DNA of 64,000 nucleotides from an uncultured Eubacteriales bacterium (GTDB lineage: Bacteria; Bacillota; Clostridia; TANB77; CAG-508). The stretch covers positions 31,627-95,626 of the forward strand of contig CAOKHL010000003.1 in the NCBI GenBank assembly GCA_948468315.1. The letters are read 5' to 3'. The position numbers and the translations under genes were made by a program. Under the pieces are notes generated by a model. It was not told where the DNA came from. It saw nothing but the letters and a program-made list of their open reading frames with translations, and did not search any database. Of this stretch, positions 10,061 to 11,648 are shown piece by piece (position 1 is the stretch's first letter; every line of letters starts with the position of its first letter).

Positions 10061-10504
10061 ATGCAAATTGTAACAATATTTATTCAAAATAATCAAGGAG
10101 AATTTCTTATTCAAAAAAGAAGCAATAAAAAAAATGGTAAATATGCTATTACAAGTGGACACACAGAAGAAAATGAGAAAAGAGAACAAGGAATAATTAG
10201 AGAAGTGAAAGAAGAGCTTGGAATAGATATAAAAAAAGAAGATATAAAACTATTTTACAATACAGAAATTGATAAAAAATTATATAATTTATATTATTTA
10301 AAAAAAGACATAAATATAAGTGATTTATGCCTACAAAAAGAAGAAGTTGAAAAAGTAAAATGGTGTACACAGGAAGAAGTCGAACAACTAATAAAAAATA
10401 AGGAATTTTATGAAAATCAAATAGAAGCATGGGATTTATTCAAAAAATATATTAATGAGGAGGAATTTTATGGCAAAAATAGCTCAATGGGACATAAACA
10501 ATGA
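10061..10504 (+). CDS. NUDIX hydrolase
   Basis: Nudix box SGHTEENEKREQGIIREVKEELG; LIQKRS motif; RBS GAGGT. Confidence 0.9.
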   Translation: MQIVTIFIQNNQGEFLIQKRSNKKNGKYAITSGHTEENEKREQGIIREVKEELGIDIKKEDIKLFYNTEIDKKLYNLYYLKKDINISDLCLQKEEVEKVKWCTQEEVEQLIKNKEFYENQIEAWDLFKKYINEEEFYGKNSSMGHKQ

Positions 10505-11459
10505 ATGTAACTTAAATTGCATGCATTGCAGGGTATCTGAAAAAAATGATAGTGAAAAATTATCACTAAAAGAAGCAAAACAATTACTTTCAGAGCTTTG
10601 GTATAATGGAACCACAATGCTTAATTTGTCAGGAGGAGAACCTTTTTTAAGAAAAGATATTTTTGAAATTTTAGATTATACAAAAAAATTTGAAGACATA
10701 GTTATAACTACAAATTGTACATTACTAGATGAAGATAAATGTAAAAAACTTTCTACATACCCAAATGTAAGATTATCAATTAGTTTAGATGGTTTAGAAG
10801 AGACACACGATAAATTTAGAAGGAAAAAAGGAGCATTTAATAAAGTAATAAATACATTACCAATATTAGAAAAATATAATATTAAATATGCAATAAAATA
10901 CACATTATCTAATGAAACATCAGAAGATGTATTAGATTTATTAAGACTAGTAGCAGAAAAAGGAGCAAAAGAATTTAATATAAGAAGAGTAATAGTTGCT
11001 GGAAATGCTAAAGAAGAAATGCTTTTGTCAAATGAAGATTATAAAAAAATAATAAAAGATGTAATTGATGAATGTAAAAAATTAAATATAAATTTTAGAA
11101 CAGGAGACCCATTATTAATACCTGTATTTTCGGAAATTTTTGGTATAGACATAAAAAATGATGATTTAAGTAAAATATATGCTGGATGTCAAGCTGGAGA
11201 TGAGATTATATACATAGATTACAAAGGAAATGTTGGAGCGTGCTCATATATTCCAAAATTTGCAGACAATATAAAAGAAAAATCATTAGATGATATTTTA
11301 GAAAATAATAAATTATTTATAGATTTAAGAGATTATAAAAATAAATTGCAGGGAAAATGCAAAAAATGTGATTATAAAACAATATGTGGAGGCTGTAGGG
11401 CATCTGCTATGCTAATAAAAAAATCTCTATTTGAAGAAGATCCTTTATGTTTAATTTAA
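10470..11459 (+). CDS. Radical SAM protein with C-terminal SPASM domain
   Basis: CNLNCMHC (CX3CX2C) and SGGEP; SPASM cysteines CQAG...GNVGAC...CKKCDYKTICGGC...DPLC. Start placed at ATG 10470 after GAGGAGG. Confidence 0.92.
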   Translation: MAKIAQWDINNECNLNCMHCRVSEKNDSEKLSLKEAKQLLSELWYNGTTMLNLSGGEPFLRKDIFEILDYTKKFEDIVITTNCTLLDEDKCKKLSTYPNVRLSISLDGLEETHDKFRRKKGAFNKVINTLPILEKYNIKYAIKYTLSNETSEDVLDLLRLVAEKGAKEFNIRRVIVAGNAKEEMLLSNEDYKKIIKDVIDECKKLNINFRTGDPLLIPVFSEIFGIDIKNDDLSKIYAGCQAGDEIIYIDYKGNVGACSYIPKFADNIKEKSLDDILENNKLFIDLRDYKNKLQGKCKKCDYKTICGGCRASAMLIKKSLFEEDPLCLI

Positions 11460-11537
11460 AAAGTTTTAGTTGCAATCCAAGTTTTTAATTTTGCAATTTT
11501 TGCAAATAAACATAAAAAATTAAAAGGAGGCAAAATT

Positions 11538-11621
11538 ATGAACAATGAGAATAAAGAAAACAAAAATGTTCAAAACAATGCTGACACAAAGAAAATTATT
11601 ACTTGCAGAATGTGCGGTTAA
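11538..11621 (+). CDS. 27-aa peptide MNNENKENKNVQNNADTKKIITCRMCG, candidate RiPP precursor
   Basis: Strong RBS AAGGAGG 7 nt upstream. It lies directly behind the rSAM/SPASM gene and before a terminator. Too short for the ORF track. Confidence 0.7.
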   Translation: MNNENKENKNVQNNADTKKIITCRMCG

Positions 11622-11626
11622 TTAAT

Positions 11627-11648
11627 GAGGCTTGAAATAGCCTCTTTA
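11627..11648 (+). terminator. Rho-independent terminator
   Basis: GAGGCT-tgaaat-AGCCTC followed by TTT. Confidence 0.65.

Follow-up and report, generated by a model that had tools for sequence, protein, structure and literature searches.

A conserved four-gene cassette with a candidate maturation system for a very small ribosomal peptide in gut Clostridia and some Candidate Phyla Radiation bacteria

The 64,000-nucleotide stretch of contig CAOKHL010000003.1 from an uncultured Eubacteriales bacterium, referred to below as the window, carries on its forward strand a cassette of four genes encoding a NUDIX hydrolase, a radical S-adenosylmethionine (SAM) enzyme with a SPASM domain (rSAM), a 27-aa peptide and an ATP-grasp-like protein designated C3 (Table 1). 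The cassette is placed between the gene of a surface protein (41-9826) and rpsB-tsf, in DNA of approximately 27 % GC. The original prediction had described positions 10061 to 11648 as a unit of three genes reaching from promoter to terminator. The NUDIX gene, the rSAM gene overlapping its stop codon by 35 nt, the tiny open reading frame (ORF) with a strong ribosome-binding site (RBS), a promoter-like site and a hairpin were all recovered, but the unit does not close at 11648, since the conserved C3 gene that follows belongs to it. Known here from its genes, the cassette would on balance serve the maturation of a very small ribosomal peptide, and it very probably represents a peptide-modification system, as yet uncharacterised, that occurs in gut Clostridia and some bacteria of the Candidate Phyla Radiation (CPR). 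As far as can be told the finding is undescribed: no description of the motif or of the gene combination was found in curated families or in full-text searches of the literature, the coverage of which is incomplete.

Orthologous loci were collected with an rSAM alignment scanned against one genome per species, covering 185,579 bacterial and archaeal species. The scan yielded 29 loci from metagenome-assembled genomes (MAGs) of uncultured gut Clostridia, with rSAM identities of 65-81 %, and three CPR loci (Staskawiczbacteria, Shapirobacteria and one further MAG) with identities of 41-47 %; one of the Clostridia loci sits on a closed chromosome of 1.55 Mb. The set of 30 loci used below consists of those reaching past the rSAM stop codon, namely 27 from Clostridia, two from CPR bacteria and the window itself. 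A metagenome scan with a CPR-first rSAM alignment gave, among the matches listed, almost exclusively unrelated rSAMs at 27-34 % identity, and locus L081 was the sole orthologue. Clustering of all ORFs of the orthologous loci established the order NUDIX, rSAM, peptide, C4, C3, in which C4 is a beta-sandwich protein encoded by a fifth gene present in many relatives.

The ORF directly following the rSAM gene ends with K-K-I-[ILMV]-T-C-R-M-C-G-stop in all 30 complete loci and in L081. A syntenic short ORF ending in CxxCG, which the original prediction had proposed to look for beside rSAM homologues, was thus found in every one of these loci, and peptide-less loci, the contrary outcome it had named, did not occur among them. 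Counting from the C-terminus, T-6, C-5, C-2 and G-1 are unchanged in the 30 loci and there are no insertions or deletions between T and the stop codon. The only variants within TCRMCG are TCCMCG (L027) and TCRCCG (L030), in which R-4 and M-3, respectively, are replaced by Cys. The codons of the unchanged residues differ from locus to locus: ACT 14, ACA 14, ACG 1 and ACC 1 for Thr; TGC 16 and TGT 14 for the first Cys; TGT 17 and TGC 13 for the second Cys; GGT 14, GGA 13 and GGC 3 for Gly. Since these four residues are fixed with free third codon positions, selection acts on the protein sequence, and the last ten residues of the peptide are under purifying selection at the protein level. In the control set of 128 loci of non-orthologous rSAMs, approximately 1 Mb of DNA, one unrelated ORF ending in C..CG was encountered, and none was present elsewhere in the 64-kb window.

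The rSAM and peptide genes form the only gene pair that is invariant across all orthologous loci in two phyla; every other neighbour varies. Because that pair alone is invariant, the peptide is quite likely the substrate of the rSAM enzyme, and the same proposal in the original prediction gains support from this pairing and from the purifying selection on the peptide.

Table 1. Features of the cassette region, with positions in the window
Feature	Position	Strand	Evidence or remark
Sigma-70-like promoter, putative	9981..10008	+	TTGACA-16 nt-TATAAT, 12/12 consensus
NUDIX hydrolase, 147 aa	10061..10504	+	PF00293, 57.7 bits (cut-off 21.1), 1.6e-15
Radical SAM/SPASM enzyme, 329 aa	10470..11459	+	PF04055, PF13186; no RiPP recognition element (RRE) domain
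Small hairpin TTTGCAA-TTT-TTGCAAA	11490..11506	+	between rSAM stop and peptide RBS
Peptide-gene RBS AAAAGGAGG	11522..11530	+	read from sequence
27-aa peptide gene MNNENKENKNVQNNADTKKIITCRMCG	11538..11621	+	30 of 30 complete orthologous loci and L081
Core KKIITCRMCG, last 10 codons before stop	11589..11618	+	near-invariant in 30 loci
GC-rich hairpin with T-rich tract, terminator or attenuator	11627..11644	+	1 found against 0.4 expected
C3, 244-aa protein, predicted ATP-grasp fold, new family	11681..12415	+	no Pfam domain; AlphaFold2 and Foldseek

The N-terminal part of the peptide is rich in K, E and N, cannot be aligned between clades and ranges from 3 to approximately 25 residues. The longest peptide has 35 aa and the shortest are MDDKKKIVTCRMCG (L016), MKKRKIITCRMCG (L031) and MAKKQKKLKKRIITCRCCG (L030), the N-terminal part being reduced to just 3-4 residues in L016 and L031. 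Since this part is unconserved and can shrink so far, it does not constitute a classical leader, and recognition must target the C-terminal decapeptide. From the original description of an N/E/K-rich leader-like part followed by an IITCRMCG core, the composition and the core were retained and the leader had to be given up. A search of viral contigs with the back-translated core gave no matches, and scans of the peptide, C3 and C4 with Pfam, NCBIfam and PADLOC returned nothing specific.

The mechanically called ORF of the rSAM extends from 10455 to 11459. The ATG at 10470 (MAKIAQWD, with GAGGAGG upstream) was set as the true start because 13 orthologues all start with M-[AP]-x-[IV]-AQWD. The protein scored 90.2 bits with PF04055 (cut-off 29.5) and 35.2 bits with the SPASM model PF13186 (cut-off 21.5). 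The CX3CX2C motif (C13, C17 and C20) is invariant, CPR orthologues included, and so are seven cysteines of the SPASM half (C240, C258, C297, C300, C306, C309 and C327), which follow the pattern C..G..C - gap - CX2CX5CX2-3C - gap - C used to define SPASM here; the complete cysteine set reported originally is hence conserved. No RRE-type (PqqD-like) domain or gene was found by domain scans and ORF clustering in the rSAM or in the orthologous loci (RiPP stands for ribosomally synthesised and post-translationally modified peptide). An N-terminal RRE would have no room in this enzyme, since the first cluster cysteine is residue 13.

The best NCBIfam models for the rSAM all stayed below their cut-offs: AhbD with 212.9 of 500 bits, TIGR04053 with 199 of 395 and NirJ2 with 196.7 of 500. 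Other models of the haem pathway gave 157 of 515 (NirJ) and 142 of 650 bits (AhbC). The RiPP maturase models scored 80-143 bits against cut-offs of 300-850, for instance StsB 98 of 625, PapB 93 of 340, AlbA 86 of 850 and SkfB 82 of 300. MftC (TIGR03962) reached 115.7 of 265 bits, the anaerobic sulfatase-maturating enzyme (anSME, TIGR03942) 83.7 of 349, and PqqE was also far under its cut-off. Among relatives with solved structures compared by sequence SkfB was the best (1.4e-26), and SuiB and anSME (7.8e-13) were found as well, all of them modifiers of peptides or proteins. PADLOC labelled the NUDIX protein PDC-S07 and the rSAM pVip; both labels were rejected as generic domain matches.

The NUDIX protein was judged by a PF00293 score over the cut-off and by the Nudix box GX5EX7REUXEEXGU. 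The box, GHTEENEKREQGIIREVKEELG, is intact in the window and across the window's clade, and no NCBIfam subfamily reaches its cut-off for the window protein. In L011-L027 the Arg of the box is replaced by Thr or Ser; the metal-binding Glu residues are kept everywhere. The NUDIX gene lies directly upstream of the rSAM gene or overlaps it in 25 of the 27 Clostridia loci having both genes, the exceptions being L013, where it is found approximately 2 kb further upstream, and L027, where it was relocated behind C3. The CPR loci without NUDIX carry instead a histone-deacetylase-family gene overlapping C3 and a gene for an unassigned 193-aa protein. NUDIX genes also recur beside C3 homologues in other clusters.

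None of the 27 complete Clostridia loci lacks the C3 gene, which is also found in the CPR locus L030, there upstream of the rSAM gene. The C3 protein had no Pfam match at E values up to 10, no NCBIfam match and no PDB match with either sequence or profile. The AlphaFold2 model, based on 27 homologues, had a predicted local distance difference test score (pLDDT) of 80 and a predicted template-modelling score of 0.75, and when it was compared with the PDB by Foldseek all of the top 50 matches were ATP-grasp enzymes, among them tubulin tyrosine ligase, D-Ala-D-Ala ligase (Ddl), PurK, RimK, glutathione synthetase (GshB), LysX/ArgX and rifampin phosphotransferase. The model thus suggests a protein of ATP-grasp fold; it was not called a PPDK_N domain because hhalign gave no significant match to genuine domains of that type. 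The invariant residues of C3 are R48, E56, Q120, R137, D138, D210 and R212. The family is tiny: 47 clusters were all that a profile search recovered among 1.84 billion representative proteins. The last 25 residues or so (12340-12415 in the window, and the corresponding part of orthologues) are predicted to be disordered and are not conserved; these tails often end with an acidic pair, as in ..EER, ..EIER, ..ELEL and ..EQEL.

Some C3 relatives (P0339, P0341 and P0352) possess a C-terminal PEP-utilizers phosphohistidine swivel domain; no such domain (PF00391) was found by a Pfam scan in the window C3 or its neighbours. In L031 (20-1222), from a CPR-like MAG, the rSAM orthologue carries an in-frame N-terminal fusion to a PEP-utilizers swivel domain, and whatever lies further upstream is cut off by the contig start. 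This fusion and the swivel-bearing C3 relatives tie the rSAM to C3-type chemistry.

C4 is a protein of 105-117 aa starting with MSIFPKK. In L007-L026, apart from L011, its gene separates those of the peptide and C3, and in both CPR loci it is located close to the rSAM gene. The structural model (pLDDT 91) is a plain Ig-like beta sandwich. According to tblastn the window contains neither C4 nor the histone-deacetylase-like and 193-aa proteins of the CPR loci, and C4 is also missing from the closest relatives of the window.

C3 homologues were also detected in other gene clusters. A recurrent module of six genes in L178-L180 has the order NUDIX, C3, rSAM (308 aa), a protein with helical and swivel parts, PPDK_N and a further rSAM (367 aa). 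Variants in L175-L177 have two tandem paralogues of glycyl-tRNA synthetase (GlyRS) inside the module, and a variant in L161 has an S66 (MccF-like) peptidase, a truncated gene resembling class II aminoacyl-tRNA synthetases and GlyRS; L163 holds an actinobacterial-looking version of the NUDIX-C3-rSAM module. The rSAMs of these sister modules are not orthologous to the window enzyme, the similarity being limited to approximately 80 N-terminal residues. Since NUDIX and C3 occur beside non-orthologous rSAMs, they form a portable pair working with different rSAM enzymes. No convincing precursor peptide gene was found in the sister clusters (L161, L163, L175-L180), and these clusters could form an uncharacterised system of their own, either biosynthetic or of the conflict type. 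L167 and L168 show the arrangement histone deacetylase, C3, PPDK_N plus swivel beside the genes of methionyl-tRNA synthetase (MetRS) and MetK. In the CPR genome of L030 (1703-3383) and in the unrelated contigs L167 (6530-8091) and L168, the gene immediately 5' of C3, or overlapping it, belongs to the histone deacetylase family. In L169 (860-2899) a C3 homologue is placed immediately upstream of a YcaO-family gene; a precursor peptide was looked for on this short contig and none was identified.

The promoter-like site in front of the NUDIX gene is the sole perfect match within 9700-12700 and lies 53 nt upstream of the NUDIX ATG. The spacer between the rSAM stop codon and the peptide ORF is 78 nt long and contains the small hairpin and the RBS, of which AAAGGAGG ends 7 nt 5' of the peptide ATG. 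A GGAGG-type RBS precedes the peptide gene in 29 of 30 loci, and none is visible in L030. Nearly all Clostridia loci (L001-L027) have a hairpin at the position of the small hairpin with clade-specific stems, such as TTGCAA/TTGCAA, TTTTGTAAGAG/CTTTTACAAA and TTGCATAGGTA/TACTCATGCAA, and it is often followed by a conserved ACATATAAAT that could be an internal -10 element. The hairpin itself could act in mRNA stabilisation or processing, or be part of an internal promoter region. A second hairpin directly 3' of the peptide stop codon was found in 28 of 30 loci, again with differing stems, despite the conserved cassette genes located downstream. With hairpins on either side of it, the peptide gene may be subject to attenuation or to differences in message stability. 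An Rfam scan of 9700-12700 returned nothing except two sub-threshold matches of miRNA models to a hairpin at 9868-9918. In the whole window a single Rfam family exceeded its threshold, the OLE (ornate large extremophilic) RNA at 26136-26693 on the forward strand, with 306.8 bits against a gathering score of 50.

In the window the NUDIX-rSAM-peptide-C3 block stands upstream of rpsB-tsf; in L003, L005 and L006 it is found downstream of a block composed of rpsB, tsf, C19, C17 and an SSB-like gene. This differing position indicates that the four genes moved as one unit in a local rearrangement. L028 has the same upstream order as the window but ends inside the rSAM gene. The remaining neighbours, which include MetRS, FolD, DprA, LigA, a sortase, a recombinase and an importer-type ABC system, vary by clade and look like housekeeping genes. 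The gene directly upstream of the window cassette (41-9826, forward strand) encodes a giant adhesin, a surface protein of 3261 aa with 12 Cna_B, nine MucBP and two DUF11 domains and a C-terminal hydrophobic anchor.

None of the approximately 30 loci was found to provide a protease, an ABC exporter or an immunity gene for the cassette, so the original remark that RRE, protease and exporter are not visible applies to the window and to its relatives alike. Several neighbours were considered and set aside. An M16-family peptidase (18171-19439, forward strand) was rejected as the leader protease since a homologue adjoins C3 only in L004-L006, through local synteny. The ABC-transporter genes beside the cassette in L016-L026 were rejected as an exporter; they have the look of a NitT/TauT-type importer with a substrate-binding protein and are absent elsewhere. 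MetRS, which stands beside the cassette in some loci, was taken as synteny only.

The following course of events is proposed. The operon would be transcribed from the promoter-like site upstream of NUDIX with read-through into the ATP-grasp gene, and the two hairpins bracketing the peptide gene would probably raise the level of the peptide message over that of the enzymes. The rSAM may bind the C-terminal decapeptide KKIITCRMCG directly, as suggested by the lack of an RRE and the dispensable N-terminus of the peptide, and a substrate cysteine would probably be brought near an auxiliary cluster. Reductive cleavage of SAM would generate a 5'-deoxyadenosyl radical, and abstraction of a hydrogen within T-C-R-M-C-G could lead to a Cys-derived cross-link, which is favoured because of the two invariant cysteines and the seven-cysteine SPASM domain. 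Thioether is the most likely product, and the main alternative is oxidation of Cys to formylglycine of the anSME type.

C3 would then perform an ATP-dependent step, preferably activation of the C-terminal Gly carboxylate for ring closure (e.g. onto Thr-6 or a Lys) or for capping. Activation of the C-terminus is favoured because the only carboxylate of the core is that of the C-terminal Gly, and the position of the stop codon and the spacing from T to the end never vary; the ability of tubulin tyrosine ligase, RimK, glutathione synthetase and D-Ala-D-Ala ligase to activate C-terminal carboxylates speaks for it as well. Alternatively, C3 could phosphorylate Thr-6, since relatives of it are fused to a phosphohistidine swivel domain. 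The weakest step of the proposed mechanism is that of NUDIX, which might hydrolyse a diphosphate-containing intermediate or a nucleotide by-product of the C3 step. A bacteriocin of the diversifying kind is a less likely product than a compound acting on or within the cell that makes it, because protease, exporter and immunity genes are lacking, the "leader" drifts beside an invariant core, and very small genomes retain the cassette.

Several observations weigh against a maturation cassette for the peptide as outlined above. A conserved leader is lacking and neither an RRE nor a protease or exporter was found, and the curated models closest to the rSAM represent tetrapyrrole enzymes (AhbD, NirJ2) and TIGR04053 instead of RiPP maturases. 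NUDIX was not found in the CPR loci L030 and L031. The assignment of C3 comes from a predicted model whose Foldseek scores are modest (template-modelling score approximately 0.45, E approximately 1e-4 to 1e-3), and with the genuine PPDK_N domains of the sister clusters hhalign gave a probability of 0.4 %, which is not significant. The modules of NUDIX, C3 and rSAM in L161, L163 and L175-L180 have no detectable peptide gene, so C3 and NUDIX need not act on a peptide. Finally, the specific chemistry, i.e. the thioether and the activation of the C-terminus, is inferred. As an alternative, the enzymes might modify a small molecule, nucleotide or cofactor-like, with the peptide serving as an accessory cluster-binding or regulatory subunit. 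The strongest argument for such a scheme is the portability of the NUDIX-C3 pair among different rSAMs, which would fit a phosphorylated or nucleotide-linked molecule; NUDIX enzymes act on nucleoside diphosphate derivatives, the best curated rSAM models are of the AhbD/NirJ2 (tetrapyrrole) type with generic viperin models matching too, and the NUDIX-C3-rSAM-swivel-PPDK_N-rSAM clusters combine the lack of a recognisable peptide gene with aminoacyl-tRNA synthetase paralogues. The scheme is nevertheless considered unlikely: the rSAMs of those clusters resemble the window enzyme in some 80 N-terminal residues and are not its orthologues, the tetrapyrrole-family scores are far under the cut-offs, the peptide is never lost beside an orthologous rSAM while NUDIX, C4 and the position of C3 vary, and a 13-aa peptide with one CxxC would hardly make a stand-alone subunit.

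If the peptide is the substrate, its fate could differ from that preferred here. It might be processed to a cofactor or small metabolite, either diffusible or bound to protein, as in the pathways of pyrroloquinoline quinone (PQQ) and mycofactocin, with the C-terminal residues transformed and possibly excised. An invariant core with a variable and dispensable remainder recalls PqqA and MftA and not the bacteriocins, the cassette is apparently inherited vertically in the clade, including a genome of approximately 1.5 Mb, and is present in CPR bacteria, no exporter or immunity gene accompanies it, and the rSAM is, broadly, of the SPASM group to which MftC and PqqE belong. Such a fate is rather improbable, however, as no peptidase is consistently linked (M16 adjoins C3 in L004-L006 only), the loci offer no candidate for a cofactor-dependent enzyme, and the MftC and PqqE models remain far under their cut-offs. 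A more elaborate version, given a similarly low probability, would have the decapeptide as the precursor of a new cofactor or metabolite of the PQQ/mycofactocin type, made by an RRE-less SPASM enzyme, a dikinase-like ATP-grasp family and NUDIX, possibly through a (pyro)phosphorylated or nucleotide-linked intermediate, and kept since host-dependent, genome-reduced bacteria need the product. A classical secreted sactipeptide or ranthipeptide bacteriocin, with protease and exporter encoded elsewhere, would explain why a SPASM rSAM adjoins a short Cys peptide, why SkfB is the best match of solved structure and why the hairpins recall the design of bacteriocin operons. This seems a poor candidate in view of a core that does not diversify, a leader that is unconserved or nearly absent, the lack of an RRE, protease, ABC exporter and immunity gene in approximately 30 loci and the lack of matches to the pattern in the scan of viral contigs. 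The assignment to sactipeptides or ranthipeptides is unproven, AhbD, NirJ2 and TIGR04053 being the nearest curated models, all far under cut-off. A chance origin of the small ORF within AT-rich DNA between genes has practically no probability left. The ORF has just 27 codons in DNA of 27 % GC that is rich in short ORFs, but this explanation is refuted by its conservation in 31 loci, where rSAM identity falls to as little as 41-47 %, by the constant position of its stop codon, by its RBS and by the synonymous-only change at four codons. Maturation of the peptide by the rSAM of the cassette remains the preferred interpretation.

Pairs of an rSAM/SPASM enzyme and a small peptide have repeatedly yielded new chemistry, as in sactionine, ranthionine, mycofactocin and PQQ. 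The present pair is unusual in that the enzyme, with neither leader nor RRE to rely on, must recognise an invariant C-terminus of 10 residues, and in its companions, a NUDIX hydrolase and a Pfam-less family of 47 clusters with gene fusions linking that family to phosphohistidine swivel domains. Its hosts are abundant uncultured Clostridia of the human and animal gut with very small genomes, and CPR bacteria; their biosynthetic capacity is scarce, and the genes they retain tend to matter. The substrate is small enough for chemical synthesis, which makes the chemistry directly testable.

RiPP enzymes as a rule bind leaders or use an RRE (PMC10114670). From the usual features of a RiPP locus, a precursor gene beside a maturase is present here, a conserved leader and an RRE are absent, and the cut-off of a curated maturase model is not reached. 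The sactipeptide and ranthipeptide systems (SkfB/SkfA, AlbA/SboA, CteB/SCIFF, PapB) likewise have a SPASM rSAM encoded beside a short Cys peptide; unlike them, the cassette described here has no RRE and no conserved leader, its near-invariant core of 10 residues has two cysteines, and NUDIX and an ATP-grasp-like protein take the place of protease and exporter. Like the present cassette, the mycofactocin (MftA/B/C) and PQQ (PqqA/D/E) systems combine a SPASM rSAM, which acts first, with a small precursor whose reactive C-terminal motif is conserved; they also lack an exporter and have an intracellular product, as is proposed for the present system. They differ in having a PqqD/MftB-type RRE, an MftE/PqqF-type peptidase and linked dehydrogenases, and the peptide described here ends with CG (CRMCG), whereas MftA ends with GVY.

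AhbD, NirJ and TIGR04053 gave the highest-scoring models over the full length and have the same RRE-less layout, with scores amounting to 40-50 % of the cut-offs. These families are not characterised by a co-conserved peptide gene, and no tetrapyrrole genes were found in the loci whose flanking genes were read or Pfam-scanned. With the ATP-grasp peptide ligases (graspetide/microviridin ligases, RimK, tubulin tyrosine ligase, LysX) C3 shares the predicted fold, and its top structural neighbours ligate onto the C-terminal carboxylates of peptides or proteins; in contrast to them C3 has no similarity at the sequence level and, with about 220-244 aa, is shorter than typical. A graspetide was excluded, since side-chain esters or amides are impossible in a core (KKIITCRMCG) without Asp or Glu. 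The order of an ATP-grasp-like domain followed by a PEP-utilizers swivel, known from phosphoenolpyruvate (PEP) synthase, pyruvate phosphate dikinase (PPDK) and rifampin phosphotransferase, is repeated in some C3 relatives, and the L031 rSAM carries a swivel; unlike these PEP-utilising dikinases, the window C3 has no swivel, none is encoded nearby, and the sister clusters encode a separate bona fide PPDK_N.

A parallel in the mode of recognition is offered by anSME, which is likewise a SPASM enzyme without an RRE, is similar in size and binds its short Cys motif directly. The anSME motif C/S-x-P/A-x-R is absent from the peptide, and a dedicated tiny peptide takes the place of a sulfatase. The cassette works like the rSAM/SPASM peptide systems, namely sactipeptides, ranthipeptides, mycofactocin, PQQ and anSME, and is a member of no curated family.

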